Assembly (NCBI GenBank): GCA_965223415.1
Contig: OZ245002.1
Span: forward strand, 5,120,001 to 5,184,000
DNA: 64,000 nucleotides
Source: Myxococcota bacterium
GTDB taxonomy: Bacteria > Myxococcota_A > UBA9160 > UBA6930
Direction: 5' to 3'
Part shown: piece by piece, positions 6,323 to 22,451 of the stretch
How positions within the stretch are numbered: the stretch's first letter is position 1
How the letters are laid out: each line of letters opens with the position of its first letter
Translations under genes and position numbers: made by a program
The notes under the pieces: generated by a model
The model's input: only the letters and a program-made list of their open reading frames with translations
The model's database searches: none
Told to the model about the DNA's origin: nothing

Positions 6323-6359
6323 AACAACTTAACAAACGGAACCGGCCCCTAACTTAACG
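6323..6359 (-). repeat. Right 37-bp copy of the inverted repeat pair
   Basis: AACAACTTAACAAACGGAACCGGCCCCTAACTTAACG, which contains the TAA stop of the downstream ligase gene. Confidence 0.9.
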
Positions 6360-8009
6360 GTAGGTGTGGCCGGCGATTTCGGTGTGGTGGGTGGTGAGGT
6401 GGGCGAGGGCCTTCTCGCGCAGGGGGTCGAGCTGGATCTTCTGGCTGCCGGTGTAGGTAACGTCTTCCGGGCGGACGGGGATGACGACGCGGGGGACCTT
6501 GTAGCTGGCGATCCGATCGCGCAGGTGGGAGCGCAGGGCGTCCGGGTCCGGCGGGGTGGTGGCGTCGGTGGGGATGACGCAGAGCACGATGGCTTCGCCG
6601 AGGGTCGGATGGGGGACGCCCAGGGCGTGGGCGGCCTTCACACCCGGGTAGGCCGCCAGAGCGGTCTCGATCTCGAGGGGCGACACGTTGGCGCCGCCGG
6701 TCTTGATCAGGTTCGAGAGCCGCCCCTTCCAGTGCAGGTTGCCATCGGCGTCGATCCAGCCCCCGTCCTGGGTGCGGAAGAAGCCCTCAGCGTCGAAGGC
6801 GTTCTCTGGATCGACCTTGTAGTAGCCGACCATCAGGGTCGGCCCCTTGACGGCGATCTCGCCTTTCTCGCCCTGGGCCAGCGATGCGCCCGACTCCGGC
6901 TCGACGATCCGGACGGTATTGCCCGGGAGCGGCGGTCCGTGGGTTTCGTGCCGCAGCGCCGGGGCGGCCCGGGCGGGCAGCGCCGTCGCCAGGGTGAAGG
7001 TCTCGGACAGGCCGTAGGACCCGTAGATCCCCCACTCGTCCTTCTCCAGGGGGACGAGCTTCGCGAGGGGCGAGCTGAACTCCACCCGTCGAACGCTGCG
7101 CAGGTCCCGGCCGGTGGCGCTGGGATGCTCGGCCATGGACTTCTCCTGGTGCGGCCAGGCGTGGACGGTGGTGATGCGCTCGCGCTCGATCGTCGCCAGG
7201 GCCTGTTCCGGGTCGAAGGACTCCTCCACGACCAGGGTCGCCCCCGCGGCGAGCGTCGCGCCCAGCGACATGGCGATGCCCGCGGTCCAGAAGAAGGGCT
7301 GGGCGGAGTACACCCGATCGTCGGACGACAGATCCATCAGCTCCGCGAAGCGCCAGCTCTGCAGGATGGCGGCGCGCTGGCGATGCAGCACGCCCTTCGG
7401 TTGGGCGGTCGTGCCCGACGTGTAGATGATGCAGCCCTCGTCCGAGGGTGCGACCTCCGAGATGCAGGCATCGAGGAGCTCGTCGTCTTCCCCGGCCCCC
7501 CGCTCGATCAGCTGGGACCAGGGCACCGCGCCGCCGCGACCGCGCTCGAGAGCCAGACAGAAGATGCGCCGCAGCTGCGGCAGCGCCCGCACCCGCAGCC
7601 CCCCCGGCCCGGCCTCCCCGACGGCGGCGTGCTGCTCGAGCAGCTCGTCGAGGAAGCGGTGCTTGAGGAGCTCCCGCTGCATGAGGAGCACCGAGACGTC
7701 CCCGTGGCGGAGGATGTGGTCGCGCTCCGAGGGGCTCGCGTAGGTGTTCACGGGAACCACCACGGCGCCGGTCATCGCCGCGCCGAAGGCCGCGGTCACC
7801 CACTCCGGGCGGTTCGCCAGCCACACCCCCACGCGAGCACCCTTCACCACGCCGGCCGCGACGAGCCCCTTCGCCACCGCCCGCGCACCCGCGTGCAGCC
7901 GTGCGTAGCTCCAGCTCTCGTCGCCGAAGCGCAGCGCCTCCCGCTCGCCGAAGCGCGCCGCCACGTCCTCGAGGAAACGCGGCCAGGTCTGGCGGTGAGG
8001 ATCGGGCAC
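6354..8009 (-). CDS. Acyl-CoA synthetase (class I adenylate-forming enzyme)
   Basis: YTSGTTAQPKG, YGLSET, FFRTQDGG, GRLSNLIKTGGANV, YKVP. GGAGG before GTG 8009. Confidence 0.93.
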   Translation of the reverse strand: MPDPHRQTWPRFLEDVAARFGEREALRFGDESWSYARLHAGARAVAKGLVAAGVVKGARVGVWLANRPEWVTAAFGAAMTGAVVVPVNTYASPSERDHILRHGDVSVLLMQRELLKHRFLDELLEQHAAVGEAGPGGLRVRALPQLRRIFCLALERGRGGAVPWSQLIERGAGEDDELLDACISEVAPSDEGCIIYTSGTTAQPKGVLHRQRAAILQSWRFAELMDLSSDDRVYSAQPFFWTAGIAMSLGATLAAGATLVVEESFDPEQALATIERERITTVHAWPHQEKSMAEHPSATGRDLRSVRRVEFSSPLAKLVPLEKDEWGIYGSYGLSETFTLATALPARAAPALRHETHGPPLPGNTVRIVEPESGASLAQGEKGEIAVKGPTLMVGYYKVDPENAFDAEGFFRTQDGGWIDADGNLHWKGRLSNLIKTGGANVSPLEIETALAAYPGVKAAHALGVPHPTLGEAIVLCVIPTDATTPPDPDALRSHLRDRIASYKVPRVVIPVRPEDVTYTGSQKIQLDPLREKALAHLTTHHTEIAGHTYR

Positions 8010-8032
8010 GCGAGCGCCTCCGGGAGCCGAGT

Positions 8033-9205
8033 CTACTCCTCGGGCAGGGCCTCGGTGGGAAGCTGGATCTCGGCCTGGCCGGCGGCCATCACCGCGTCCT
8101 TCTGATTGGTCATCGTCACCTCGACGGTGGCGATCGGCAGGCCCGTCTCCGGCTGCTCCTGCACGTCGGTGACGGCGCCGTTCAGGTAGGTCATGTCGCC
8201 GAGGAGCGCCGGCGAGCGGTAGGACATGTTGCTGTGCAGCACCCGCCCCCACTCGCCGACCCAGTTCGTCAGGTAGTCGAGCACCCACGCGCCCATCGAC
8301 GCCCCGTAGCCGTAGCCGCGGGGCATGCCGATCAGCTGGGCGTAGCGATCCTGCACGTGGCCCCGGGAAGGCCCGTAGTAGAGCCCGTCGCTGTAGGTGG
8401 GATCCACCTTCGCGCCCTCCAGGTCCCGTGACATCTCCGGCAGCCAGCCTGCCCGCCACAGGGAGGTGGGACCGCCGCTCGCGCGGAAGGTGCCCCAGAC
8501 CGTGAACGGGTAGGAGCGCCACTCGGTCGTGAAACTCATCACCGTGTGCGGACCGATGGGACGGGTCGGCAGGGTGTCGCCGGCCTTCACGAAGAGCCGC
8601 CGGTCGTGCGCCAGATCGAGGAAGCTCTGGTAGTAGTCGAACTTCTGCTTCTCGATCTCCCGCAGCTCGTCGTCGTTCCAGGTCGTCGTCGGGTCCTCCA
8701 TGAACTGGCCCTTCTCCCGGGCCAGGTCCGCGCGGTAGCGGATGGAGGTGGAACGCTGCTTGCAGACGATCTCGCCCCGCTGGTTCACGTAGGTCGTGTC
8801 GCCCCGGGAGAACATGGTGGGGCCCGCGAACTTCGTCTCCGTGACCTTGTAGTCGAAGAGCATGCGCTCGTGGCGGAAGGAGTCGCCGGGGTAGATGCGC
8901 GGCCCGTAGAACCACCACTCGTCGCCGCCGAAGAGCATGTGGGTTCCCGGGATGTGCCCTTGGATGGCCGGCGCCGCCCCGTGGCTGTCGTCGGTGCACA
9001 CCGCATAGGACTGGGGCGCCACCAGCTCGCCGTAGCGACCCTCCTCCGCGTACTCCTCGTCGTAGTAGAGCGGGTTCGGGTTCTGCATGCCCTGGGCCCA
9101 GCGCCGCAGATCGTTCGGGTGGATCGGGTCCTTGGGCTCGCCCCCCCCCAAAGGCACCCCGATCCACCGGTCGACGTCGGTCGTGTCGAAGTCGTGAGCC
9201 GCCAT
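8033..9205 (-). CDS. Tandem hot-dog (MaoC/FAS1-like) acyl-CoA dehydratase
   Basis: DLRRWAQG..NPNPLYYD, APQSY, MLFGGDEWWFY..IYPGD, then a second hot-dog domain (GHVQD..A..IGMP..YGYG). Confidence 0.8.
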   Translation of the reverse strand: MAAHDFDTTDVDRWIGVPLGGGEPKDPIHPNDLRRWAQGMQNPNPLYYDEEYAEEGRYGELVAPQSYAVCTDDSHGAAPAIQGHIPGTHMLFGGDEWWFYGPRIYPGDSFRHERMLFDYKVTETKFAGPTMFSRGDTTYVNQRGEIVCKQRSTSIRYRADLAREKGQFMEDPTTTWNDDELREIEKQKFDYYQSFLDLAHDRRLFVKAGDTLPTRPIGPHTVMSFTTEWRSYPFTVWGTFRASGGPTSLWRAGWLPEMSRDLEGAKVDPTYSDGLYYGPSRGHVQDRYAQLIGMPRGYGYGASMGAWVLDYLTNWVGEWGRVLHSNMSYRSPALLGDMTYLNGAVTDVQEQPETGLPIATVEVTMTNQKDAVMAAGQAEIQLPTEALPEE

Positions 9206-9235
9206 GGAGCCTCCGCTGGGGAACCCGGGTAGTAT

Positions 9236-9250
9236 TTGACGGACCGTCAA
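9236..9250. promoter_or_regulatory. Second TTGAC-N5-GTCAA operator, in the dehydratase/VOC divergent intergenic region
   Basis: TTGAC-GGACC-GTCAA has the same half-sites and spacing as 5469-5483. Confidence 0.65.
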
Positions 9251-9276
9251 CTCGGTCAAGGGCTAGCATCGCCGCC

Positions 9277-9750
9277 ATGAGCTCGATCCAACGCTTCTCG
9301 CATCTGGGCCTGTGCGTGGCCGCGCTCGAGCCCGCGCGCCGCTTCTACGTCGACGCCCTGGGATTCGCCGAGGAGAGCGAGCTGCAGGTGAAAGGCGAGC
9401 CGACCGACAGCCTGCTCGGCCTGCGCGATACGGAGCTGCACGCGGTGTACCTCACCCGCGACGGCTTCCGCCTGGAGCTGCTCCACTACGCGAGGCCGGG
9501 GCACGAGGCCGCCCCGCGGCCCCGCCCGATGAACCAGCTGGGGCTCACCCATCTCTCGCTGCGGGTCGCCGACCTGGACGAGGTATTGGTCCGGGTCGCC
9601 GCGTCCGGCGGCGAGGTGCTCGCCGGGACGCGGATCGCGATGGGTCCTTCCGCCGCGGCCTTCGTCCTCGACCCCGACGGCACGCGCATCGAGCTCGTCC
9701 AGGCGCCCGGCGACCCTGCGAGCCCGCCGTCCGCCGGAGGTTCGCGATGA
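9277..9750 (+). CDS. VOC/glyoxalase family protein
   Basis: FSHLGLCV..RRFYVDALGF, RLELL, THLSLRV, FVLDPDGTRIELVQ. Confidence 0.9.
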   Translation: MSSIQRFSHLGLCVAALEPARRFYVDALGFAEESELQVKGEPTDSLLGLRDTELHAVYLTRDGFRLELLHYARPGHEAAPRPRPMNQLGLTHLSLRVADLDEVLVRVAASGGEVLAGTRIAMGPSAAAFVLDPDGTRIELVQAPGDPASPPSAGGSR

Positions 9751-11390
9751 GTCTGCCCGAGCCGTGCTCGATGCCCGCCTTCGTGCGCGCCCAGGCCGCG
9801 CACCACGGCGATCGTCCCTTCGTCTCCCTCGGCGAGCAGCGCCTCACCTACGCCCAGCTCGAAGCCCGCTCGCGACGCTGGGCCCGGGGGCTCCTGGCCC
9901 GCGGCGTCGGAAAGGGCACGCGGATCGGCCTGCTCATGCCCAACGGTCCCGACTGGGTGACGGCCTGGATCGCCGCGACCCGCATCGGGGCCCTGCTCGT
10001 CCCGCTGAACACCTTCTACCAGGCCCGCGAGCTCGGCTGGGTGCTGGCCCACGCCGATGTCGACACCCTGCTCTGCGTCGACCGCTTTCTCCGCAACGAC
10101 TACCTGGAGCGCCTCGAGCAGTTCGCTCCCGAGCTGGCACGCGCAGAGGCGGCACCGCTCCACCTCGAAGCCCTGCCCTACCTGCGCCGGGTCCTGGTGG
10201 CGGGAGAGCTGCGCCGGCCCTGGGCACGGCCCCTCGCAGAGCTGGAGGCGCAGGCGGAGGCGGTGCCCGAGACCCTCCTGGAGGCGGTGGAGGCCCAGGT
10301 GACTCCCGCCGACCCGATGATCGTGATCTACAGCTCCGGCAGCACGGCAGATCCCAAAGGCGCCGTGCACACCCACGGCACCGTCATCCGCCACGCCCAC
10401 AACCTGAACCAGTTCCGTGATCTCCGGGCCAGCGACCGCATGTACTCGCCGATGCCGTTCTTCTGGGTCGGCGGCTTCCTCTTCACCCTGGCCTCGGTGA
10501 TGCACGTCGGCGCCGCACTCCTGTGCGAGGAGGTGTTCGAGCCCGGACCCACCCTGGAGCTCCTGGAGCGCGAGCGCGCCACCCTCGTCACCGGCTGGCC
10601 CCACTACAGCAAGGCTCTGGCGGACCACCCGACCTTCTCGCAGCGGGACCTCTCGGCCGTACGCGGCGGCAACCTCTACGACCTGCTGCCCGAAGGCCAG
10701 CGCCCGGCGGACCTCGAGCTCCGCTCCAACTCTCTCGGCATGACCGAGACCTGCGGGCCCCACACGATGGACCCGATGGACCAGACCCTGCCCGAAAAGC
10801 TGCGCGGCTCCTTCGGCCACGCGGTGCCGGGCGTCGAGCACAAGGTGGTCGATGCGGAGACCGGTGCGGTGCTCGGGGCCGACGCCTCCGGCGAGATCTG
10901 CGTGCGCGGCTACTCCGTCATGCAGGGCCTCTACAAGCAAGAGCGCGAGGAGGTCTTCGACCGCGACGGCTTCTACCACACCGGAGACGGCGGGCGCTTC
11001 ACCGCCGACGGCGTCCTCTTCTTCGAGGCGCGCCTCGGCGACATGATCAAGACCGCCGGCGCGAACGTGACCCCGCGGGAGGTCGAGGTCGTGCTCGAGG
11101 GCCTTCCGGGGGTGCGCTCGGCCTTCGTCGTGGGCGTGCCACACCCGGACCGGGGCGAGAACGTCGCCGCGGTCGTCGTGCCGAAGGAAGGCGAGAGCCC
11201 GGCGGCCGACGCGCTCCACAGCGCCCTGCGAAACGAGCTCTCCGCCTACAAGGTGCCGCGCCACCTGTGGCTGGCCGGTGCCGACGACGTGCCGATGACC
11301 GACAGCGGCAAGGTCGACAAGAAGCGCCTGCGGGCGGAGCTCGCCGCGCGCATCGAGGCGGGCGACACCGGCGAGCCCCCGCGCACGTGA
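9747..11390 (+). CDS. Acyl-CoA synthetase (class I adenylate-forming enzyme)
   Basis: YSSGSTADPKG, LGMTET, FYHTGDGG, RLGDMIKTAGANV, SGKVDK. ATGA overlap with the VOC gene. Confidence 0.93.
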   Translation: MSLPEPCSMPAFVRAQAAHHGDRPFVSLGEQRLTYAQLEARSRRWARGLLARGVGKGTRIGLLMPNGPDWVTAWIAATRIGALLVPLNTFYQARELGWVLAHADVDTLLCVDRFLRNDYLERLEQFAPELARAEAAPLHLEALPYLRRVLVAGELRRPWARPLAELEAQAEAVPETLLEAVEAQVTPADPMIVIYSSGSTADPKGAVHTHGTVIRHAHNLNQFRDLRASDRMYSPMPFFWVGGFLFTLASVMHVGAALLCEEVFEPGPTLELLERERATLVTGWPHYSKALADHPTFSQRDLSAVRGGNLYDLLPEGQRPADLELRSNSLGMTETCGPHTMDPMDQTLPEKLRGSFGHAVPGVEHKVVDAETGAVLGADASGEICVRGYSVMQGLYKQEREEVFDRDGFYHTGDGGRFTADGVLFFEARLGDMIKTAGANVTPREVEVVLEGLPGVRSAFVVGVPHPDRGENVAAVVVPKEGESPAADALHSALRNELSAYKVPRHLWLAGADDVPMTDSGKVDKKRLRAELAARIEAGDTGEPPRT

Positions 11391-11403: not shown

Positions 11404-12585
11404 GTGAGCACCTACCGATGGTTCACGGCGGGCGTCGCCTCCTGGTTCACCGCCTGGGGCATGAACGCCCTGGTCTTCAGCTGGCTCGTGGTGGGCGTCC
11501 TCGAGGCGGAGCCGCGTTGGGTGGGGATCGCCCAGACCTCGACGCTCCTGCCCTCGCTTTTCCTGCTCCTGTTCGGCGGCGCCGTCGCCGACCGGCTCGA
11601 CCCCCGGCGTCTGCTGATCGGTCTGCACCTGGCCGCAGCGCTGCCGATCCTGGCCCTGGCCGGCGTCGTGCAGGTCGGCGCCCTCACCCTGCCCTTGCTG
11701 CTCGGCTACGGTGCGGTGCTCGGCTCCTTCTCCGCCTTCGTGATGCCGAGCCGGGACGCCCTGCTCTCCCGGGTCGCCGGCGGCGACATGATGCGAGCCG
11801 TGACCGGCATGACCGTCTTCCAGTTCGGCGGCCAGGCCCTGGGCACGCTCCTGGCCGGTCGGGCGGAGGCCGTGGGGGTCGTGGCCGTGCTAGTCGCCCA
11901 GGCGATCATCGTGGCCCTGGGCGCCGGCGCCACCGGCTTCCTCACCGAACGTCCACCTCGGACGGATGACGCCCAGGACGGCTCGGCGCTCGCACGGATC
12001 CGCGCCGGCCTCGGCATCGTGGCGCGCACGCCGGAGCTGCGCACGCCGGTGGCGCTGGTGTTCCTGGTGGGCGTCCTCTTCATCGGCCCGTACCTGGTGC
12101 TCTTCCCGCTCCTCGTCCGGGATCGCTACGCCGGCGGCGCCCAGGAGCTGGCCTTCGTGCTCATGACCTTCCCCCTCGGCACGATCCTGGGCTCACTGGT
12201 TCTGCGGGCCCGCGGCGGCATCCGGCGCAAGGGCCGAGCGCTGCTCCTGGCCCTCGCCGCCGGCGCGACCACCCTCGTCGTGATGGGTACCGGCCTCTCC
12301 TTTCCGGGCATGGTGCTCGCCGCCCTCTTCTGGGGGCTCGCCGGATCGGTCTTCATCAACACGAGTCGCACCCTCGTGCAAGAAGCGGCGCCGGCAGAGG
12401 CAAGGGGTCGCGTGCTGGCCGCCTATCAGGTCGGTTTCGTGGGCGGTGGCCCGATCGGGACCCTGCTGGCGGGCATCGTGGCGGAGCGCGTCGGCCCCCT
12501 CGCGACGCTCACGGCAGCGGGCGGTGCGATGCTCGTGTGCGTCCTCGCAGTCGCCGTGTTCAGCGGCGCGCGGGAGATGCAGTAG
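11404..12585 (+). CDS. MFS transporter
   Basis: About 12 hydrophobic helices, GAVADRLDPRR motif A, RGRV in the second half. Confidence 0.9.
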   Translation: MSTYRWFTAGVASWFTAWGMNALVFSWLVVGVLEAEPRWVGIAQTSTLLPSLFLLLFGGAVADRLDPRRLLIGLHLAAALPILALAGVVQVGALTLPLLLGYGAVLGSFSAFVMPSRDALLSRVAGGDMMRAVTGMTVFQFGGQALGTLLAGRAEAVGVVAVLVAQAIIVALGAGATGFLTERPPRTDDAQDGSALARIRAGLGIVARTPELRTPVALVFLVGVLFIGPYLVLFPLLVRDRYAGGAQELAFVLMTFPLGTILGSLVLRARGGIRRKGRALLLALAAGATTLVVMGTGLSFPGMVLAALFWGLAGSVFINTSRTLVQEAAPAEARGRVLAAYQVGFVGGGPIGTLLAGIVAERVGPLATLTAAGGAMLVCVLAVAVFSGAREMQ

Positions 12586-14341
12586 GGCCCGCGCTCCAGC
12601 GGCGACCCAGCAGGGCGTCCGGCGCGCGCCGTGCCGGGGCAATCGCCACGGCACGCCCGCCGAGCTCGATGCGCGCCGCGCTGCCGGCGGCGAGGCGCGG
12701 CACCTCCAGGCGGGCGGGTCTCGGATCGTCCCCGAAGACCTCGACGACCAGCCCCTCCAACGGCCGTGCGTCCCGGTTCACGATGCGAAGGGCGCCGCCC
12801 TCCGCCGCCTCGAGCTCGACCCGCGAGCGCTGCGCGACCCAGCGCACCGCTTCGCCCGCCGTCGCCCGCCAGGCGTCCCGGCGCAGATCGTCCCGGAGCA
12901 CCGGGGCCAGGGCCTCGCGGTGGGAGGTCGCGGCCAGGCCCTGTCCCGAGAGCACCAGCAGGTGGAGACCACCCAGGGCACGCATCCGCCGCAGGTCCCG
13001 CTGGGCCTGGCGAGGCGCCACCCGCTGGCGGGCGGTCCGGTCGTGGGCGGCGGCCGCCCGTGAGACCAACGCCATCGGGAGGCCCTCCGCCGAGACCCAG
13101 CGCGGGTAGGCGCGGTCGAAGGCCGGGTCACCGACGACGTAGGCGTAGCCCGCCGTCGCCGCCTCGTGGAGGGTCAGGGCATCGAACTGCTCGCGAGGCA
13201 CGCGCAGGCCCCTGACCGGTCGCGGGTGGAGCCCGCCGATCGCCGCCCGGCTCTCCGAGAGCTTCTGCTGCTGGTGGATGCGTGTGCCGCCGTCGAATAG
13301 GGTGCGCCGGTCGCCCCGGGAGCCGAGCTCTGCGCTCGCGCGCAGGCGGGTCCTCAGGCGCCCCTCGGCGCGGACGACGTCGCTGTAGACGAACACGGTG
13401 GCACGCGGCTCCAGCGCTGCAGCGGCCTCGACCGCGGCCAGCACCTCGTCCTCGTCACCGTGGGTATCGATGCCGACGACGGAGGCGAAGCGCTGCGCCT
13501 CGGGCCACGGCGCGAGCGCGACCACGTCGTCTCCCGCCACCCACTGCAGGGCAAGACTCCGCAGGCGATCCAGCTCGGCGCGAGAGCCCTCCACCGCATG
13601 GGTGGCCGGGAACCCGAACCAGGCGCGGCGGGAGGCGCCCCCGTCGAGCGCCGCTGCGGGCTGCCAGGCGCCGAGCGGGTCCGGCGACGGGCGCAGCTGC
13701 CAGCTGCTCCACCAGAGCACCGGGTCGCCGCTCTCGTGGGTGTAGGCCGGCGAGTCCAGCGGGATCTCCAGCCGGCGTCCCGGATCGAGGGGAGCCGCCG
13801 GCGCGCTGCGTCCGGCCGGGACCACGAACAGAGCCTCGGCGCCGAAGGGACGGGGCGCCGCATCGGCGAGGCCGGCCGCACCGGTGAGGATCACGCCTCC
13901 GCCGGCGGCGGCGAAGCGATCGATCGCCCGGCGCTCCCCCGGTGCCAGACACAGCACCCAGGGAACGACGATCGCGTCGATCGTCCCCGGCCGAGCGGGG
14001 ATGCGTCGGGCGTTGCCCAGCTCGGTCGCGATACCGACGGCCTCCGCCAGCCCGCGCCAGCGCTCGGTCTGGGACCACAGGTCGAAGCCCCGCTCGGTCG
14101 CGCAGGCGATGTTGCTCGCGGGCTGCACGATCCGCACGCGGCGCGCGGGCCCCCTGCGCCAGGGCGGCGCGGTACCCTGCTCGGCGGTGGGAATGGACGC
14201 CACCTCCATCGCCGGGAACAGGTTGCGCAGGGTCCAGAGATAGGCGAGGCCGCCGCTGGCCATCAGCAGCACGAGGCTCGCCACCAGCAGCGCGTAGTAG
14301 AAGGGAATCCGTCCGCGCGGGTCTCCTTCGGTTCGCTCCAC
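12560..14341 (-). CDS. Membrane-anchored polysaccharide deacetylase-like protein with a degenerate NodB-type domain and an N-terminal Rossmann/GATase-like domain
   Basis: N-terminal TM; DAIVVP..E..AI.RF...GGGVILTG; PWP..; GIDTH, ATVFV, ELGSRG (normally EIxxHG), GLRVP, GYAYV. Confidence 0.65.
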   Translation of the reverse strand: MERTEGDPRGRIPFYYALLVASLVLLMASGGLAYLWTLRNLFPAMEVASIPTAEQGTAPPWRRGPARRVRIVQPASNIACATERGFDLWSQTERWRGLAEAVGIATELGNARRIPARPGTIDAIVVPWVLCLAPGERRAIDRFAAAGGGVILTGAAGLADAAPRPFGAEALFVVPAGRSAPAAPLDPGRRLEIPLDSPAYTHESGDPVLWWSSWQLRPSPDPLGAWQPAAALDGGASRRAWFGFPATHAVEGSRAELDRLRSLALQWVAGDDVVALAPWPEAQRFASVVGIDTHGDEDEVLAAVEAAAALEPRATVFVYSDVVRAEGRLRTRLRASAELGSRGDRRTLFDGGTRIHQQQKLSESRAAIGGLHPRPVRGLRVPREQFDALTLHEAATAGYAYVVGDPAFDRAYPRWVSAEGLPMALVSRAAAAHDRTARQRVAPRQAQRDLRRMRALGGLHLLVLSGQGLAATSHREALAPVLRDDLRRDAWRATAGEAVRWVAQRSRVELEAAEGGALRIVNRDARPLEGLVVEVFGDDPRPARLEVPRLAAGSAARIELGGRAVAIAPARRAPDALLGRRWSAGPTASPARR

Positions 14342-14344
14342 GGT

Positions 14345-14572
14345 CTAGGCCTCGGGGTCTCCGCTCGGCTCCTCGACGGACGCGCCGCCGCCCCGCTGAT
14401 AGCGGCGGAACACGCGCGGCGGCGCTTCCTCCTCCGGCGCCACCCGTCCGGCGCGGGCGCGCTTCTGGTCCCGGAGTTTGTAGGCTGCGTAGGAGCCGAA
14501 CGCGAGGATGATCGTGACGATCGTCGTGGCCATGATCACGGTCGACAGGATCGGGATGAGGTCGAACTTCAC
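14345..14572 (-). CDS. Small single-pass membrane protein (75 aa), candidate synthase accessory subunit
   Basis: Long hydrophobic N-terminus, then a basic stretch. Starts 1 nt after the GT2 stop and ends 3 nt before the next gene. Confidence 0.75.
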   Translation of the reverse strand: MKFDLIPILSTVIMATTIVTIILAFGSYAAYKLRDQKRARAGRVAPEEEAPPRVFRRYQRGGGASVEEPSGDPEA

Positions 14573-14573
14573 G

Positions 14574-15884
14574 TCAGATGCGCCCCTTTCGCTCGAGCTT
14601 TCCCCAACTCATCTGGCGGCCCATCAGCTCCTCCAGCGTGGCCATCACCTTGCACACGTCGATCACGACGATGAAGAAGACCCGATAGTAGATGGCGTAG
14701 AACGCCAGCTTCAGGTCCTCTTCCTCGATCGCCACACAGAAGAGCGCCGCCGCCACGTCGAGGATCGTGAGCTGCGTCCACCAGAAGAACAGCAGCTCCG
14801 TCATGCCGTACTTGACGCCCACGATGACGAAGAAGGCGTTGGCGAAGATGTTCATCGCGGGCCAGATCAGCCCCTCGAACACCATGTACCAGAGGATCAG
14901 GCTGTTGGCGGGCGTGGCCCACGGCCGCCAGAGCAGCCGCGAGTGCTTCTTGATCGCCTGGAGGATTCCCCGCGTCCAGCGGTAGCGCTGCTTGAGCAGG
15001 TCGAGCAGGTCTTCGGGCGCCTCCGTCAGCGCGACGCAGCGCCGCTCGTAGACGACCTTGAAGCCCTCGAGGAGCAGCTTGAGGGTGAGGTCGCAATCTT
15101 CCGCGTAGGTGTCGTGCTCGTAGAGGCCCACATGGAAGAGCGCGGACTTGCGGAACATCCCGATCGGCCCGGGAATGATGTTCACCATGCGAAAGAAGCC
15201 CTGGGCCTTGCGGGCCATGTTCAGGCCTTCGATGTACTCGAGGGCCTGGAGCTTCGAGATCATGTTCGATCGGTTCACCACCTTCACGTTGCCGGCGACG
15301 GCCGCAATGTTCGGATCGAGGAAGTGTTTGACGCCCTCGCGCACCGTGTCCCGCGTGAGCTTCGAGTCGCCGTCCATGCAGAGCACGATCGAACCGCGCG
15401 CGGAGCGGATGCCCTGATTGAGCGCCCGGCTCTTGCCGCCGTTCGGCTTGCGGATCACCCGCACCTCGGCGCCGCCCGCCTGCTTGCCCGCCAGCTGGTT
15501 CGCCTTGCGGTAGGTGTCGTCGGTCGAGCCGTCGTCGATGACGAGGATCTCGTAGTTCGGGTAGTCGAGCTCGAGGAGCGAGCGGATCGAGCTCTGGACG
15601 ACGGCGCCCTCGTTGTAACAGGGCACGATGATCGTGACCATCGGGTACTGCCGCATGTCCGGCAGGGCCTGGTCCTCGAGCTGATCCAGGTAGGAGAACC
15701 ACAAGAGGCCGAGGTAACGGATGACCAGTAGGACGAGGAAGCCGAAGAGCACCACCACCGAGACCTGGACGAAGGCGTCCTCCAGCACGAGGCGCTTGGA
15801 GAGCACCTGGCGGTAGAGCACGACGCTCAGCGTGATCAGAGCGACGGCGAGGACGACCAGGCCCGCGGTGTAGCGATGCTTCAC
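14574..15884 (-). CDS. Processive GT2 glycosyltransferase, PgaC/IcaA-like (PNAG-type) synthase
   Basis: IIVPCYNEG, DDGSTD, NGGKSRALN, MDGDS, AEDCD, QRYRW, plus N- and C-terminal TMs. Confidence 0.9.
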   Translation of the reverse strand: MKHRYTAGLVVLAVALITLSVVLYRQVLSKRLVLEDAFVQVSVVVLFGFLVLLVIRYLGLLWFSYLDQLEDQALPDMRQYPMVTIIVPCYNEGAVVQSSIRSLLELDYPNYEILVIDDGSTDDTYRKANQLAGKQAGGAEVRVIRKPNGGKSRALNQGIRSARGSIVLCMDGDSKLTRDTVREGVKHFLDPNIAAVAGNVKVVNRSNMISKLQALEYIEGLNMARKAQGFFRMVNIIPGPIGMFRKSALFHVGLYEHDTYAEDCDLTLKLLLEGFKVVYERRCVALTEAPEDLLDLLKQRYRWTRGILQAIKKHSRLLWRPWATPANSLILWYMVFEGLIWPAMNIFANAFFVIVGVKYGMTELLFFWWTQLTILDVAAALFCVAIEEEDLKLAFYAIYYRVFFIVVIDVCKVMATLEELMGRQMSWGKLERKGRI

Positions 15885-17817
15885 GGCGCCACCGGGAACC
15901 GATAGCGAAGGCCCACCTGCACGAAGTCCGACTCGTAGACGAGCCCCGACCGCACGGACTGATAGTGGTCGTAGCGAAGGGAGAAGCGCAGGCGCTCGTT
16001 CAGCTCCCACAGCAGCTCCGGGTTGATGCGCCAGCTGAGGCCGGAGCTCCCATCCGAATGGATGCGGCCGTACTCGCCGGTCAGCACCAGGTAGAACCGG
16101 TCCCAGAGCCGCTTCTTGAGCCGCAGGCCGAGTGCGTAGGTGAGCAGGTCCTGGGGCGAGTAGTAGAGGGGCGAGGTCTCGCTGTAGTCCCCGACGGAGC
16201 CGACGGCGAGCAGGTCGACCTCGAGCGGGCGCTCGACGAGGGTCAGGCCCAGGACGCTCCGCACGGTCCAGAAGCTGGGGGAGTCCGAATAGCGACCGAC
16301 CTCGGCGCGGGTCCAGCTCGTGAAGCGCTCGCCGTCGTACATGTGCACCAGGAAAGCGGTCGAACGCTCCACGCCCTCCAGCCCGCTCTCGATCGAGTGC
16401 ACCTCGGGGAACGCGTCGCCGTGGCGGAGGTCGAGCTGGAGCGCGTGGCGGTAGCCGAGCCAGCGCGTCGCGAAGACCCGCAGGCGCGGTGAGAGCCCGA
16501 CGCCGCCATAGCGGACCGCGCCCAGCTCCCCGCCCCACTCGAAGCGCTCGTCGGCCCGCTCGGAGAAGCCGACGCGGAAACCGTAGGCGTCGACCCGCTC
16601 GCCCGCATGCTCGGCCCGGGGCGTGTCCAGGCGAAGCGACCAGCGCTGGCCCGGTCGGGGCGTGTACAGGCCCTCGCTCTCGGTGGTCCACACCGAGAGG
16701 CCGTCATTGTCCTGGAACCACGAGAAGGCCGGCTCGGCGGAGGGCGAAGCCAGCAGGGCCAGGTGGGCGAGCTGGCGCTTGGCTTCCGCGTGGTCCGGGT
16801 CTTCGGCAAGGATGCCGCGGTACACGTCGTCGGCGAGACGATGGGCGCCGGACCAGGCGTGGACGTTGCCGAGCCCGACTCGGGCGCGGTGGTCGTCGGG
16901 CTGCTCTGCGATCAGCGCCTCGAGCTGGCGGCGGGCCGGACCGTACCGGCCGCGCCAGCTCGTCATCTCCGCCAGCTCGGTCCGCAGCAGGCGGTCTTCG
17001 GGTCGGGCCTCGAGGAGCTCCTGGTAGAGCATCTGGGCCTCGGCGTATCTTGCGCTCCAGGCGTGGAAGCGCGCCAGGTGGAGACGCGCCTCGTCGTCCT
17101 CCGGGTGCTCGCGAAGGTGCCGGCGCAGCAGGCGCCGCGCCTCCGCGTAGTGGCCCTCCTGTCCCAGCCGGATGCCGAGCGTGCGGGGCGAACGCTGATC
17201 GCGTTGCACCGCCTCGAGCTGGGTCCGGGCCCCCTCGTGGTCGGGATGATCGGCGAGCACCGCTTCCAGCTCCCGGGCCGCGTCGTCCAGGGCGCCGTCG
17301 CCATGATAGCCGCGGGCCCGCGCGACCCGGAAGGCGGGCTCGTCGGGGAAGTGCTGGAGGCCGAAGAGCAGCCAGCGGCTGGCCAGGTCCGGCCGCTCGG
17401 CAGCCCGCATCACCTCGACGGTCTCCGCCAGCACCTCGGGCTCGTCCCGGAAGAACGGCGCCGCGAGCACGTAGTGGGAGAGCGCGGTGCCGCCGTCGCC
17501 CAGGTAGTAGTGGGCGCGGCCGAGGGACAGCCGCGCCTCGCCGTCCCCGGGCGCATCGGCGACGACCGCCTGGAGGGTCGGGATCGCGTCGAGCTCCCTG
17601 CCTGCCCAGAGCTGGGTCAGGCCGAGCTCGCGCCGGAGGGTGGCGTCTCCGGGCTGCTCGGCGAGGAGCGTCTCGTACAGCGCGATCGAATCGTCGTAGT
17701 CGCCGGACCAGGCCAGCTCCCGAGCCCGCTCGTGACGCGGCGCCACCTCGGCCTCGGCGCTTCCGGCGGCGGTCGCGAGGAGCAGGAGGGCCAGCAGGAG
17801 GGGGGAGCGGCTCTCAT
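15881..17817 (-). CDS. TPR-repeat plus outer-membrane beta-barrel polysaccharide exporter (PgaA/BcsC-like architecture), frameshifted in a C6 run just after the start
   Basis: Repeated 'ARELAWSGDY'/'LARFHAWSARY'/'LGNVHAWSG' TPRs, amphipathic strands ending VQVGLRYRF. ATG 17817 (ATGA overlap) is out of frame with the signal peptide by one base. Confidence 0.8.
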
Positions 17818-20126
17818 GCTTCCCGGCCGCGGAAGACGCGGCCCTCCTCCACCCGGGCCACCACCCGTGGCGGGCTCTCGACCGTCTCCACCCAGAGGAT
17901 GCAGGCGCCGCTCCGGGCACGGAAGCCTGCGGGGGTCTCCTCGGACCCGCTCTGGCGCCGGTAGCGGTGGGCGTCGATGGTCGCGGCGCGCAGGCCGTCG
18001 GCCCCGACGCTGATCTCGTGGCTCGCACCGTCGATGGGTGACGTGACGAGGGTCTGCTCACCGGCCAGGGCGTGATAGACCGCTTCGATCAGCGGGTACT
18101 TCTCCACGGGCTCGCCGGGTCGCTCGTCGACGTCCTCTTCGATGAGCTGCGAGCTCTCCTGGAAGAGCCGCTCGACGTAGGGCGGCTCGATGGCATCGTC
18201 GGCCAGGCGATCGGGCTGCAGGGTGAGGAGACGGAAGAGGGCCTTCGGCTTCACCGTCTGCTCGCCGAGGAACGCCTCGGCCGCCCCGGCCATCTCCGTG
18301 TGCACCCGGCGCACCACGGCGTGGGCGCCCTCGCCGTCCGCGTCGACGAGCACGGCGACCAGCCGCCGTTCGTCCAGCTCCGCCAGCGCGTCCTCGGCGC
18401 GGATGCTGCGGGCGAGCACGTCGCGGAACTGGGCCACGAAGCCGGCACTGGCGCCGTCGACGAAGCGGAACTCGTAGCCCACCAGGCTCACCGGAACGCC
18501 CGCGTCCTCGGCCCAGCTCCGGACGCGCTCGATCGCCGGCTCGAGCTCGTCGCGCGCCAGCGTTCGCGGGAGGAGCATGCGCGGCGCCGCCTCGACGTCG
18601 ATCGCCGGCCATTCCTGGGAGCCCGGCGGCCGCGCGCGCAGCAGCGACACCATCGTCGCCCGCAGGCGCCGCTCGTCGATCGGCTTCGGAAGGGCCGCGT
18701 CGGCACCTGCGGCGAGGGCCCGGGGCAGCTCGCCCGGCCCGGCGTGGGGCGAGCACAGGAGCACGATCGGCACCGTCACGCGGAGCTCGCGCAGGATGCG
18801 GCAGAGCCCGATGCCGTTCAGGCGCGGCATGCGCGCGCCCATCAGCACCAGATCCGGCTCGGAGACGGCGGCGAGACGCAGGCCGGCGACCCCGTCGGCG
18901 GCCTCGAGAACGTCGATCTTCGAGCCGCAGGTGCGTGCCACCTCCCGGCGCGCCTCCTCGTCGGCCTCGATCACGAGCACCGTCGCCGAGAGCCCCGGGC
19001 GCCGGTTGGGCGCCACCTCGACGGGCGGCGGGGCACTCGGCTGCACCCGCGGCGACGCGACGCCGGCCTTCCGGCGGCGCCGGGCGAGCTGCTCGAGCTC
19101 GTCGAGAGTATCGTCGTCCAGCAGCTCGAGGTCATCGGCCCCCGAGCTCGACCCCGCCGCCGGACGCGGCGCGACGGGTGCGTGCGGCTCGGCGACGGCT
19201 GCCGCCTCGGCGGCCCGCGGCACGGCCTCGACGACCGGCTCCACCGCAGCCCGCGGCACGGCCTCGGCGACCGGCTCCGCCGCAGCCCGCGGCACGGCCT
19301 CGACGACCGGCTCTGGAGCGACGACCGGATCCGGGAGCAGCGTGGGCGCCAGCTCGGCGTGCGGGGCCGGCGTCTCCTCCGTCGCGGCGGGCGCCGCCGC
19401 TCGCTTGAAGCGCGCGAAGCCGCGACGCCCGGGGGCGACCGCGGTCGGTCCGCCGCCCGAGATCCCGGCCTCGCCGATCGTGAAGTCGAAGCGGCTCTTC
19501 TTCAGCTGCACGTTGCGCATCTTGTAGACGAGCAGCGAGTGGTCCGGCCCCTCGTCGCCCTCGGCGCCGCGCTGCAGCTCGAACAGACCCCAGCACACCT
19601 CCGAGAAGACCCGCAGCACGAAGGGCTGCTGCATCACCCCGCTGTCGCTCAGCATGAGCGGGCTCCAGCCCATCTCCTCGAAGCGGGCGGTCAGCATGCG
19701 CAGCTCGCTGCGCAGGATCGTCTCGTCGTCCATCGACGAGAAGAACGGGTCCACCGGGTCGAGCACGATACGCCGGACGCCCAGCCCCTCCACCTCGGCC
19801 TGCAGCTCCACCAGCACGGCCTCGGGGCCGGAACGGGCGACGATCTCCCGGAAGCCCTCGTCATACTCGAGCAGGATGAGCTGCTCGTTGTCGACGTACT
19901 GGCTGAAGGGGAAGCCGAACCGCTCGGCCTGCTGGATCAGGTCGTCGGCCTTCTCGCGACACACGTAGAGGGCGCTCTCGCCGGCCTGCAGGCCGGCGTG
20001 GGCGTACTGCAGGCCGAAGATCGACTTGCCGGTGCCGCTCGCGCCGAACGCCATGTAGGGTTTCGCGCGAAAGAAACCGTCTGCCCCGGCGTCGAGGAAA
20101 TCGACGCCGGTGGGGATCCCCTCCAT
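17814..20126 (-). CDS. KaiC/RAD55-like P-loop ATPase, Pro/Ala linker, pseudo-receiver and degenerate GGDEF (RxxD) domain protein
   Basis: IPTGVDFLD, GASGTGKS Walker A, RIVLDP Walker B, VYKMR; receiver PDLVLMGARMP..NG..LC and LPKP; RSIRAED I-site followed by LDERR in place of GGDEF. Confidence 0.85.
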   Translation of the reverse strand: MEGIPTGVDFLDAGADGFFRAKPYMAFGASGTGKSIFGLQYAHAGLQAGESALYVCREKADDLIQQAERFGFPFSQYVDNEQLILLEYDEGFREIVARSGPEAVLVELQAEVEGLGVRRIVLDPVDPFFSSMDDETILRSELRMLTARFEEMGWSPLMLSDSGVMQQPFVLRVFSEVCWGLFELQRGAEGDEGPDHSLLVYKMRNVQLKKSRFDFTIGEAGISGGGPTAVAPGRRGFARFKRAAAPAATEETPAPHAELAPTLLPDPVVAPEPVVEAVPRAAAEPVAEAVPRAAVEPVVEAVPRAAEAAAVAEPHAPVAPRPAAGSSSGADDLELLDDDTLDELEQLARRRRKAGVASPRVQPSAPPPVEVAPNRRPGLSATVLVIEADEEARREVARTCGSKIDVLEAADGVAGLRLAAVSEPDLVLMGARMPRLNGIGLCRILRELRVTVPIVLLCSPHAGPGELPRALAAGADAALPKPIDERRLRATMVSLLRARPPGSQEWPAIDVEAAPRMLLPRTLARDELEPAIERVRSWAEDAGVPVSLVGYEFRFVDGASAGFVAQFRDVLARSIRAEDALAELDERRLVAVLVDADGEGAHAVVRRVHTEMAGAAEAFLGEQTVKPKALFRLLTLQPDRLADDAIEPPYVERLFQESSQLIEEDVDERPGEPVEKYPLIEAVYHALAGEQTLVTSPIDGASHEISVGADGLRAATIDAHRYRRQSGSEETPAGFRARSGACILWVETVESPPRVVARVEEGRVFRGREA
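19213..19313. repeat. 36-bp tandem repeat (about 2.8 copies) encoding the EPV(V/A)EAVPRAA(A/V) linker
   Basis: GCCCGCGGCACGGCCTCG(A/G)CGACCGGCTC units start at 19213, 19249 and 19285. Confidence 0.9.
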
Positions 20127-20171
20127 CCGTTCCCATCCTCTCTCGCTCTCTCGCGAGGGTTTCGCTGTTGA

Positions 20172-20197
20172 ATCGGTGCTTTCACCGGGGGGCTTGA
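20172..20197 (-). promoter_or_regulatory. Sigma28/FliA-like promoter TCAAG-N15-ACCGAT upstream of the EPS operon
   Basis: The same motif and spacing recur at 39467-39492 (+) and 62187-62212 (-). Confidence 0.5.
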
Positions 20198-20227
20198 GGA
20201 GCGGACGCCTGGGGTCGAAGGGGAGGA

Positions 20228-21268
20228 ATGCCCCGCACGAGCGAGCCGCCGAAGGTCGTCCCCTGGGGGGTCCGGTTCGCCCTGGCCCTCCTTCTCGCCG
20301 CTCCGGACGCCTCCGTCGCCGAGGGCCTGCGGGTGGGCATCGGGGACCGGGTCGAGTTCCACCGCGCCGGCCGGGTCGTCCATGTGCGGGACGAGGCGCG
20401 GGCCCTGGGCCTGGCCACGGACTACCAGCAGATCTGGCTGCCCCGCGGATGGCAGGACGCCTGGCTCGACCCGGCGGCGCTCAGCGCCCTCGCTCACACC
20501 GGGACCACGCCGGTGGTGGCCCACTGGTTCTTCGGCGACGCGATCAGTCGCGAGCGGGTCGAGGCGGAGCGCCACGCGTGGCACCGGAGCCTGGCCCGCA
20601 TGGCGCGGCGCATCGCGATCGGCGCGCCGGTGCTGGTGCTGCTCGAGCCCGAGTTCAACAACGCCCCGCCGCCGGGAGAGACCGCCGTCACCGACTGGCC
20701 CGGCTTCGCGCGGGAGGTGCGCGAAGCCGTGCGCATCCTCCGCCACTTCGCGCCGGAGGTCCGCGTCGGCCTGTGCGCCGGGGACTTCTCACCGACCCGG
20801 AACCTGGAGCGCGCGCTCGGCGGCGTCGCCGACGAGCTCGACTTCCTCGCCTTCCAGGAGATGCGCGCCAGCACGCGCCACGGGCGCGACGCCCTCGACC
20901 TGGGGACCGCCGCCGTCTCCTACGCCCGCTACCTGAAGGAAGCGTTCGGGCGGCCGCTGTTCCTGGGCTACGTGGCCGTCTCGTCCCACGGCGGCTGGGA
21001 GGACGCCCAGCGCGAGGCCCTCGCCTCCCTCGTTCGCGAACGCGAAGCCCTGACCGGGGCCGGTGTCTTCGGCCTCGTCTACTTCCAGCTCCGCGACGAT
21101 CCGGACCACACGGGCTGGTTCGGCGACGCCGAGCGCCACTTCGGCGTGCTCACCGCCGAGGGCGCGCCGAAGCCGGCGCTCGAGGCGCTGCGCGCGCTGG
21201 GGACGAGCCCGGCCGCCCCGCCTGCCGCACGAGACGGATCCCCTGGATCCGCTCCCACACCTCGCTGA
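20228..21268 (+). CDS. Secreted TIM-barrel glycoside hydrolase-like protein
   Basis: Signal peptide; VLVLLEPEFNN acid/base-like motif, LDFLAFQ, RPLFL, GLVYF..DD..H.GWF..E..FG. Divergent from the EPS operon. Confidence 0.55.
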   Translation: MPRTSEPPKVVPWGVRFALALLLAAPDASVAEGLRVGIGDRVEFHRAGRVVHVRDEARALGLATDYQQIWLPRGWQDAWLDPAALSALAHTGTTPVVAHWFFGDAISRERVEAERHAWHRSLARMARRIAIGAPVLVLLEPEFNNAPPPGETAVTDWPGFAREVREAVRILRHFAPEVRVGLCAGDFSPTRNLERALGGVADELDFLAFQEMRASTRHGRDALDLGTAAVSYARYLKEAFGRPLFLGYVAVSSHGGWEDAQREALASLVREREALTGAGVFGLVYFQLRDDPDHTGWFGDAERHFGVLTAEGAPKPALEALRALGTSPAAPPAARDGSPGSAPTPR

Positions 21269-22451
21269 CCGGCAGCACCGTCACGCCGCTCCTCTCGATC
21301 TCGACCAGGGCCTTCTCGAAGTCGTCGACGGCGTACTCGATCTCGATCCGGGGATCGCCGTTCAGCACGTGGAACATCAGGATCGCCCATTCGCCGTGCT
21401 CCTTCGCCCGCCGCGCGATGGCGCCGATCTCCGCGGGCGTCGTCGTGTCCAGCACGTTGACGGCGCGGAGCAGGTGACGGTCCGCGACCGGGATCGTCTC
21501 GGGACCGGCGCCGGCGACGCGGGCCGTCGCGAAGTGCTTGCGTACGATCGGCCGCACCACCCGCGGCTCCTGTCGGCCGAGGGGATAGGCGAGGTGGCCG
21601 TCAGCGCGGAAGCCCCGCCCGCGCAGGTAACCCTGCACGTCCTGGATCTCCCGCTCGAGCTCGAGCTCGCTCATCTCCGTGAACGGGGTCGCGTGGTGGG
21701 CGGCCACGTCCCAGCCGTAGCGGCCGCCAAGGCCTTCGAGCTGCTTCGCGGTGACGAAGCCCTCCTCGCCCACCTGCGCCGGCATGACGTAGGCCGTGCC
21801 CCGGAAGCCGTGGGCGTGCATGGCCGGCGCGGCGATCGTGGCGTGGTCGTCGGTGCCGTCGTCGAAGGTGAACGAGAGGAAGCCCTCAGAGGCCCGTTGC
21901 ACGGCGGTCAAGCCCGTCCACGCCACCTCGACCCCGCCCTGGCCCCGATCGGCGAAGTAGAGGCCGACGGCGCGCACGTTCTGGAGGTCCACCGCGCCTT
22001 CGACCCGGGCAGTCCCGAGGCTGAAGCTCACCGGGGTCCAGGTGCCGGGCTGGACGACGTTGAACGGCGCATCCGAGAAGAGCGGAATGGGGAAGGCCGC
22101 CGTGCCCTCGTCGAAGCGGCTCGAGGTGAGCCGCAGCTCCAGGCCCGACAGGTGGGCGAGGTTGCTCACCCGGATCCAGGTGCGCAGGGTGTGACCCGTG
22201 AGGTCGGCGCCCGGCGTGATCGGAGCCGCCGAGGCGAGGAAGGCGGGACGGCCGTCACCGCGGGTGCGGCACGCCACCCAGGGCTGGGCCGGCTCGCCCC
22301 CTGCCTGGCAACGGGCCGTGCCCCACTTCTCCACGATGCGCGCAGCGCCGGGATCCTGCACCACCCACTCGCCCACCCCGCGCCCGGTGGCGGCGGAGGC
22401 GGCCAGCAGGGCGACGAGGGCGACGAGTCCGTGAATCGCTCTGGAGCCCAT
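21150..22451 (-). CDS. Secreted polysaccharide deacetylase with an N-terminal CBM-like beta-sandwich
   Basis: SFTFDDG, GFRGTAYV, WDVAAHH, LAYPLG, ILMFH NodB motifs; WTPVSFSL..VDLQNVRAV CBM-like segment. Confidence 0.85.
   Translation of the reverse strand: MGSRAIHGLVALVALLAASAATGRGVGEWVVQDPGAARIVEKWGTARCQAGGEPAQPWVACRTRGDGRPAFLASAAPITPGADLTGHTLRTWIRVSNLAHLSGLELRLTSSRFDEGTAAFPIPLFSDAPFNVVQPGTWTPVSFSLGTARVEGAVDLQNVRAVGLYFADRGQGGVEVAWTGLTAVQRASEGFLSFTFDDGTDDHATIAAPAMHAHGFRGTAYVMPAQVGEEGFVTAKQLEGLGGRYGWDVAAHHATPFTEMSELELEREIQDVQGYLRGRGFRADGHLAYPLGRQEPRVVRPIVRKHFATARVAGAGPETIPVADRHLLRAVNVLDTTTPAEIGAIARRAKEHGEWAILMFHVLNGDPRIEIEYAVDDFEKALVEIERSGVTVLPVSEVWERIQGIRLVRQAGRPGSSPARAAPRAPASARPRR

Follow-up and report, generated by a model that had tools for sequence, protein, structure and literature searches.

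Which polysaccharide system is encoded by a compact five-gene operon of a Myxococcota bacterium, and how might it be controlled? These are the questions raised by the DNA analysed here (the window: 64,000 nucleotides of contig OZ245002.1, assembly GCA_965223415.1, positions 5,120,001 to 5,184,000). A first-pass annotation had proposed an undescribed exopolysaccharide system, in which a catalytic core like that of a pga operon, for poly-N-acetylglucosamine (PNAG), is combined with a regulatory module like that of the bcsEF genes of cellulose systems. We find that the operon represents a real, broadly conserved, synthase-dependent system: it resembles a pga-sized core under BcsE/BcsF-type control, and is a member of neither pga nor bcs. 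The order of the genes, their co-conservation, the domain folds and the states of the motifs are established directly, whereas function is predicted from genes and models; that the system secretes a polysaccharide is highly probable.

Organization of the operon

The host genome comprises 5.8 Mb in a single contig, and the GC content within the window is ~72%. The five minus-strand genes (12560-20126) are tightly coupled through overlapping or near-touching stops and starts, as the first-pass annotation had described: there is an ATGA overlap between the regulator gene (17814-20126) and the exporter gene (15881-17817), and a GTGA overlap between the latter and the GT2 synthase gene (14574-15884), which is followed, after a 1-bp gap, by a gene for a 75-residue membrane protein (14345-14572) and, after a further 3-bp gap, by a deacetylase-like gene (12560-14341). 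A Pfam scan of the operon gave matches to KaiC (PF06745; E 7e-31), REC (PF00072; E 1e-15), TPRs, GT2 and, weakly, CE4. The features are listed below with the evidence for each.

17814..20126, minus strand: regulator, 770 residues (Pfam, structure models, fold matches, motif census of 29 homologues)
18390..18401, minus strand: RxxD I-site of the regulator, R576-A-E-D579, with the degenerate GGDEF position (DERRL) five residues further on
15881..17817, minus strand: likely outer-membrane polymer exporter, with signal peptide, TPR array and C-terminal β-barrel (TPR Pfams, TIGR03939, relatives' barrels)
14574..15884, minus strand: membrane GT2, 436 residues, D,D,D,QxxRW (profiles, motifs, trees)
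14345..14572, minus strand: 75-residue single-pass membrane protein of BcsF-like anatomy, in a family of its own (transmembrane segments, alignment, synteny, docking)
12560..14341, minus strand: 593-residue, N-terminally anchored periplasmic protein, GH42-trimerisation-like domain plus CE4 barrel, catalytic histidines lost

Conservation of the operon

The co-conservation anticipated by the first-pass annotation was borne out by a gene-neighbourhood search. We mapped 123 loci picked by GT2 similarity only, leaving out 6 duplicates and the short-flank loci L137-L192 (wider versions were fetched for 33 of these places), and counted loci with enough flank: the small membrane gene follows the GT2 gene in 116/118, the deacetylase-like gene is present in 95/103, the TPR/barrel gene precedes in 90/96 and the ATPase/BcsE gene is present in 80/84. 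The gene profiles were trained on the same loci, and ~75 of these are Ignavibacteria-type kin, such that the counts show a stable order and not independent events; even so, the co-conservation of the five genes is far beyond chance.

The operon loci span the window's phylum, the Ignavibacteria and the Betaproteobacteria. GT2 matches were found in 9 of 41 related genomes, in 16/251 of the window's phylum, in 42/401 of the Ignavibacteria-containing phylum and in 7/151 relatives of a betaproteobacterial genome. The closest homologues carry the labels Myxococcota or Deltaproteobacteria, and the best 80 of 90 loci from a scan of species-representative genomes are mostly from Ignavibacteria (51-59% identity). 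A plasmid search found no close synthase; over most of its length, the best match has ~35% identity. The betaproteobacterial form has a patchy distribution, since the deacetylase-like profile matches only 1/301 genomes in the order of genome G041.

Variants of the layout were also seen. Three relatives (G004, G005 and G015; locus pairs L013/L020, L015/L019 and L017/L022) each carry two versions of the operon, one of the window type and one shorter, the regulator of the latter having an intact phospho-acceptor Asp and an Arg for the Walker A Lys. In the Ignavibacteria, L043, L048, L053, L059 and L090 contain tandem duplications of the ATPase gene or of the ATPase-exporter pair, some of them truncated, and the operon is consistently followed, at L034:13616-18491 and in most Ignavibacteria loci, by genes for an Ig/FN3 lipoprotein and a PAS-kinase-REC protein. 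It is possible that this pair provides a substitute input where the RxxD motif has been lost.

The regulator

The first gene had been described as an ATPase joined to degenerate receiver and GGDEF domains, and the structure model (mean pLDDT, the predicted local distance difference test, 75.7; 83.5 for the part from residue 500 folded alone) agrees. Residues ~4-225 form a KaiC/RecA-fold ATPase domain with the Walker A sequence GASGTGKS, for which the fold match to KaiC has Z 22.1 (root-mean-square deviation, rmsd, 2.8; 205 residues aligned), with FlaH and KaiC-like single domains at Z 20-22. A disordered Pro/Ala linker (227-377) leads to a receiver domain (380-500; Z 20.0) that lacks the phospho-acceptor Asp, and this is followed by a GGDEF-fold domain (~520-663) that has RxxD and no GGDEF motif. 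The latter domain has no Pfam match, and its fold was confirmed from the model: the best matches are GGDEF domains (Z 15.3, rmsd 2.6, 138 aligned), then PelD (Z 10.8), and the comparison with BcsE gives Z 8.3 (rmsd 4.0, 116 aligned). The C-terminal domain of ~100 residues, which was barely tested, gave no clear fold match. The protein is distinct from the clock protein: it scores 73 versus 408 bits against the KaiC clock profile, and it has one ATPase domain in place of the tandem CI-CII. Within the disordered linker, there are three imperfect 14-residue repeats of the EPVVEAVPRAAA type (window 19200-19330), and linker length varies among homologues.

Motif roles (Walker motifs, receiver Asp and I-site) are those of the KaiC, REC and GGDEF families. 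Among the 29 full-length homologues aligned, out of 30 close matches, the Walker A motif GxSG[TS]GKS, the Walker B Asp and the Arg of YKMRN are present in 29/29, as is RxxD; the GGDEF motif and the receiver phospho-acceptor are each found in 0/29. The invariance of RxxD beside a fully decayed GGDEF motif suggests selection on the I-site, and RxxD is also present in 5/5 shorter paralogues and in 4/4 full-length betaproteobacterial copies. Cyclic di-GMP (c-di-GMP) is likely to be made in the host, because its genome encodes 20 GG[DE]EF motifs. Other lineages show more decay: the Walker A Lys is replaced by Arg in most regulators of the Ignavibacteria type and of the shorter Myxococcota paralogues, and the betaproteobacterial copies are without a P-loop.

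The small membrane protein

The 75-residue protein looks BcsF-like rather than PgaD-like. It has one hydrophobic segment, as does BcsF, whereas PgaD has two, and the PgaD family (PF13994) gave no Pfam match at E ≤ 10; the alignment shows a stretch of basic residues and a conserved tail of P-x-F-R-R-Y type, in which the F-x-R-Y-type part comes after a proline. Moreover, clear homologues lie beside betaproteobacterial BcsE.

Residues 1-230 of the regulator (the ATPase domain) were docked with residues 1-64 of the small protein. This gave 0.41 versus 0.00 for the best control, with contacts that agree between runs to at least 72% and a partner pLDDT of at least 60. The docking mark is reached by 116/157 solved and 2/215 mismatched pairs, with 18 of the solved pairs and both mismatches lying at or below 0.60, and the score may echo the solved BcsE-BcsF complex; it therefore lends weak support to a predicted binding of the small protein to the ATPase.

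Relationship to BcsE

According to two reports (PMC7439463, PMC11470070), Escherichia coli BcsE consists of a dead RecA/KaiC-like NTPase, a degenerate receiver and a degenerate GGDEF domain with an RxxD site; single-pass BcsF recruits it to the membrane, and the tail of BcsF extends the NTPase sheet by one strand. The link between BcsE and the operon is made by the Betaproteobacteria. All nine regulators scanned there (six genomes) pass the BcsE family PF10995, at 93-197 bits versus a cut-off of 25, and these proteins head the same operon: seven loci have the order BcsE-barrel-GT2-small protein and two are without the barrel gene, with the deacetylase gene following in seven. They adjoin the same GT2 clade and the same small-protein family; four of the nine are full length and have RxxD, and five stop after the receiver domain. 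In two of the four such genomes searched (drafts), every PF10995 match lies in these operons. Trees of the NTPase domain place the BcsE proteins of cellulose systems and of these operons together (100/99). Homology and a shared operon position are supported. When the window regulator family was compared, profile to profile, with BcsE (two sequences in the latter profile), the match fell short of significance (E 0.16), and a metagenome scan with betaproteobacterial BcsE found no match.

The direction of descent is another matter. A nesting of BcsE inside the system's regulators, supported at 81/90 in one tree, was lost under a mixture model and was rejected as a result; with the alternative at a p value of 0.45 in the approximately unbiased test (p-AU), the regulator tree cannot tell a BcsE origin in the system from recruitment into it, and a tree test with p=0.001 reflects only that the betaproteobacterial copies are BcsE. 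The reading of the operon as a hybrid, with a pga-like core and a borrowed bcsEF module, is not supported. A bolder proposal is that these operons make up a widespread, undescribed class of exopolysaccharide system in which the BcsE/BcsF module first arose, that the window's sub-family has kept an active KaiC-like ring ATPase through which both ATP and c-di-GMP would gate the PilZ-less synthase of a polymer that is neither PNAG nor cellulose, and that enterobacterial BcsE is a decayed descendant; we regard this as tentative and, on balance, unlikely.

In genome G041, a PF10995 BcsE gene at L244:9680-11143 (contig C12) is followed by a gene for a 1065-residue protein, with no GT2 evident among the open reading frames (ORFs) listed, a further setting for BcsE. 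Beside the betaproteobacterial operon, L131:17086-19894 and L132 (G041, contig C103) contain what would, judged by the N-termini, be an MBOAT/AlgX-type acetylation cluster, two BcsQ-like ATPases and more genes of the deacetylase family.

The synthase

The GT2 protein has the motifs DDGS, DGD, AED and QRYRW, the last of these (QxxRW) being present in 41/41 GT2s of the system, and ~5 hydrophobic segments, including N- and C-terminal membrane segments. This D,D,D,QxxRW set and the flanking segments are those of processive GT2 synthases; Pfam gave no PilZ match. The PgaC/IcaA likeness named in the first-pass annotation is not upheld as membership. The PgaC/IcaA model TIGR03937 is the best NCBIfam match (E 7e-65), with 219.5 bits versus a cut-off of 422.3, and the signature motifs differ: QALEY, IIPGP and AED versus QVGE[FY], TVSGV and TED in four PgaC/IcaA references (one has QISEF). 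A 55-row tree gathers the GT2s of the system into a single group (84/84), separate from the five CE4-GT2 fusions (100/98) and from four PgaC/IcaA sequences (100/100); support for the group is 100/99 in a 29-row tree, where a clade of system plus PNAG synthases is not rejected (p-AU 0.11). The references in these trees are few (14), and one cellulose-like candidate was dropped for lack of coverage by the profile. Sequence identity is 31-34% to the CE4-GT2 fusions, 25-30% to PgaC/IcaA and 21% to BcsA, and the CelA profile gives 74.9 versus 699.1 bits. The top PDB sequence match is the archaeal GT2 6yv7 (E 2e-20), with hyaluronan and cellulose synthases also high.

We conclude that, by motif and tree, the GT2 is of the processive type and belongs to a clade of its own, apart from PgaC/IcaA. 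As to its product, PMC5972031 reports that MatB of Streptomyces, a fusion-type enzyme, makes a PNAG-like polymer; the comparison with MatB was by architecture, its sequence being outside the set compared. N-acetylglucosamine would, by this analogy, remain the best single guess.

The probable exporter and its frameshift in the assembly

In the assembly, a C run near 17800 puts the ATG of the exporter gene out of frame with the long ORF. This is a one-base assembly error and the gene is intact in the organism, because the gene starts in frame in the five relatives inspected, and short-read contigs of three of four runs (X1, X2 and X4) carry one extra base at 17799. These three runs come from one study; X1 and X2 are from one sample, possibly the source sample, and X3 has no long piece there. 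A pseudogene or phase-variable gene was considered and is rejected by the extra base, although contigs cannot exclude rare length variants.

The exporter matches PgaA (TIGR03939) at E 6e-15, with 54.5 versus a cut-off of 366.65 bits, through its TPR part. Its barrel has no BLAST similarity to that of E. coli PgaA, and a barrel sequence search of the PDB was blank; the relatives' barrels match PgaA weakly (TIGR03939 in 4/16 aligned, best E 4e-7; PF21197 in 2/16). In genome G830, the ATPase, one hydrophobic segment, TPRs and a barrel are encoded in one open frame (L224:6761-9925 and L225:3372-7277; 1054 and 1301 residues, respectively). This is either a fusion that crosses the envelope or a frame that by chance runs on into the signal peptide of the exporter.

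The deacetylase-like protein and accessory enzymes

The fifth gene encodes a membrane-anchored protein with a GH42-trimerisation-like domain and a CE4 domain; at E ≤ 1e-30, 564 clusters (50% identity) belong to its family. At the window locus, the catalytic histidines are lost, as the first-pass term 'degenerate deacetylase' had implied. The three catalytic positions are intact in 0/5 window-type proteins, 0/66 of the Ignavibacteria type, 0/16 others of that phylum and 2/7 others of the window's own phylum, and in 8/10 betaproteobacterial proteins and 83/143 family representatives; the last two counts point to an acetylated polymer. No match to GH153 (PgaB-type) was found in the Pfam scan.

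Two further genes adjoin the operon.

20228..21268, plus strand: accessory gene for a putative glycoside hydrolase, whose likeness to GH26 comes solely from language-model features
21150..22451, minus strand: accessory secreted CE4 deacetylase with intact motifs and an N-terminal domain without assignment

The first-pass annotation had described this pair as a divergent hydrolase-like gene and a deacetylase with a carbohydrate-binding module: the hydrolase gene does diverge from the operon, but that for the deacetylase, read from the minus strand, runs towards the hydrolase gene, and the N-terminal part of the deacetylase has no match to such a module. The accessory CE4 retains TFDDG, AHH, AYPxG and LMFH, and recurs in seven mapped loci, each of them in the window's phylum. 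The hydrolase-like gene, which is present in only four of the mapped loci, has no Pfam or PDB sequence match; by Atlas features, the two best clusters are without a name and the third is GH26 (0.93), and among its homologues E142 is present in 86/86 and E211 in 85/86. Elsewhere, GH9 genes occur in 47 mapped loci and SGNH genes in 19, often in Ignavibacteria.

Positions 6354-11390 of the window hold genes unrelated to the operon (an acyl-CoA synthetase-like ORF, MaoC-like and glyoxalase-like genes and a second synthetase-like gene); the true start of the acyl-CoA synthetase-like ORF is apparently overlapped by a longer upstream frame.

Proposed mechanism and alternatives

We propose that the GT2 would polymerize and extrude a β-linked polymer, likely of N-acetyl sugars, which the TPR/barrel protein would carry through the outer membrane. 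By analogy with BcsE/BcsF, the tail of the small protein may dock on the ATPase domain, tethering the regulator, and RxxD would bind c-di-GMP and switch synthesis on; the regulator would thereby supply the sensor otherwise missing from a PilZ-less and PgaD-less synthase. Within the window's sub-family, ATP binding or ring formation may provide a second input, in place of the missing BcsQ, since the ATPase keeps Walker A, Walker B, the Glu at the catalytic position and the Arg-finger residue. The dead CE4 protein could be a periplasmic polymer-binding scaffold, with deacetylation performed by the neighbouring intact CE4, and the hydrolase-like protein may trim or clear the polymer. We favour this mechanism as a whole, a c-di-GMP-sensing regulator tethered by the small protein and controlling a synthase-dependent exopolysaccharide machine, with moderate confidence.

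Several observations weigh against it. The window regulator does not match PF10995 (cut-off 25 bits), and neither does any other protein of its genome; its GGDEF fold is, in the fold comparison, nearer to ordinary cyclases than to BcsE. The small protein against E. coli BcsF gives E 1.1, which amounts to no score, and has no Pfam match to BcsF (PF11120). Ignavibacterial regulators are without the receiver domain and have DKKD in place of RxxD; as five of the nine betaproteobacterial BcsE proteins also end before the GGDEF domain, c-di-GMP sensing is not a general property of the system. Most other lineages have a decayed Walker A, and ATPase activity is therefore dispensable for the system overall. 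Additionally, the set of accessory enzymes varies between lineages, with GH9 and SGNH in Ignavibacteria, which weakens the assignment of a single polymer, and most of the loci counted come from related, and thus not independent, Ignavibacteria-type genomes.

Other readings assign the genes differently. That the operon makes ordinary PNAG, as a remote pga operon with the small protein in the role of PgaD and the regulator as an optional extra, would fit PgaC_IcaA as the best NCBIfam match (E 7e-65), the weak PgaA matches of the relatives' barrels, a tree that does not reject the system-plus-PNAG clade (p-AU 0.11) and the CE4-GT2 fusions as nearest outside GT2s (31-34%), these having the architecture of MatB, with its PNAG-like product (PMC5972031). 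Nevertheless, the GT2 falls under the PgaC cut-off and its motifs differ from all four PgaC/IcaA references; the small protein has one transmembrane segment where PgaD has two, with no PgaD match in Pfam, and no GH153 was found there either. We consider this possible, if somewhat unlikely. A neutral β-glucan or mannan-type polymer, possibly O-acetylated, in place of an amino-sugar polymer appears improbable: the GT2 has 21% identity to BcsA versus 25-34% to GlcNAc-using and fusion enzymes, no PilZ match was found in Pfam and no BcsB was seen at the operon, and an intact CE4 accompanies the operon both in Betaproteobacteria and in the window. Such a product would nonetheless suit the GH9 (47 loci) and SGNH (19) genes, the GH26-like Atlas features of the window's hydrolase, the operon CE4 being intact in 0/5 window-type and 0/66 Ignavibacteria-type proteins, and a regulator type known from cellulose systems.

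It could also be that polymer export holds while the lead protein is mainly an ATP-driven assembly or localization factor (FlaH/BcsQ-like) with a remnant RxxD. Its ATPase domain is the only part of the regulator kept in all lineages and has FlaH/KaiC-like matches (Z 20-22), and the Ignavibacteria are without the I-site; set against this, RxxD is found in 29/29 homologues beside a decayed GGDEF motif, in 5/5 shorter paralogues and in 4/4 full-length betaproteobacterial copies, making the proposal decidedly doubtful. Finally, the top PDB sequence match (6yv7; E 2e-20) might indicate a non-processive lipid or protein glycosyltransferase, the TPR/barrel protein having some other cargo. Given the full D,D,D,QxxRW set, the PgaC-like N- and C-terminal membrane segments, the hyaluronan and cellulose synthases among the top matches and the constant linkage to porin-like and CE4-like genes, we regard this as highly improbable.

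Significance and comparison with known systems

The system is apparently undescribed in the literature, as the first-pass annotation had anticipated; it is co-conserved and falls within neither pga nor bcs. Our search, to which subscription journals were outside scope, found no description of the operon, nor of BcsE outside cellulose systems; the supplements of PMC7112194 and 10.64898/2025.12.21.693542 could hold clusters of this type under the name 'PNAG-like', and annotation pipelines often label the system's synthase PgaC. If our reading is correct, this is a further synthase-dependent biofilm polymer system, present in 42/401 sampled genomes of the Ignavibacteria-containing phylum and 16/251 of the window's phylum, and BcsE-type control likely extends well beyond cellulose. 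As BcsE-family proteins lie beside a synthase without BcsA, BcsQ or PilZ, BcsE must there act by a route other than BcsQ, and a relative with intact ATPase motifs offers a way to ask what the dead ATPase domain of BcsE once did.

In the Pel system (PelD, PelB and PelA), a cytoplasmic GT4 works with a separate transporter, whereas the operon has one membrane GT2; the operon's receptor has ATPase and receiver domains instead of the TM-GAF arrangement of PelD. The two systems share a separate receptor of degenerate-GGDEF type (PelD Z 10.8) and a TPR porin, and the shorter regulator paralogues match PelD (PF16963) down to E 1e-5. The CE4-GT2 fusions, of the architecture described for Streptomyces MatB (PMC5972031), contain the nearest GT2s, with QALEY-type, PGA[IV]G and AED motifs, but are single fused proteins, and no regulator or porin is annotated in the five fusion records. 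PgaABCD/IcaADBC resemble the operon in having a TPR/barrel exporter, a PilZ-less GT2 of ~430 residues, a small membrane protein and a CE4; the operon differs in its GT2 (under the cut-off, in a separate clade and with other motifs), its single-pass small protein, its dead CE4 of other architecture and its extra cytoplasmic regulator. In relation to BcsE-BcsF of type II cellulose systems (PF10995, PF11120), the window regulator keeps all of the ATPase motifs that are dead in BcsE and has a 150-residue linker and an extra C-terminal domain, no BcsA-PilZ, BcsB, BcsQ/R or BcsG was seen at the operon, and the small gene follows the GT2 gene and not that of the regulator; common to both, however, are the order of NTPase, degenerate receiver and degenerate GGDEF domains, the RxxD motif and a single-pass small partner with a cytosolic tail.

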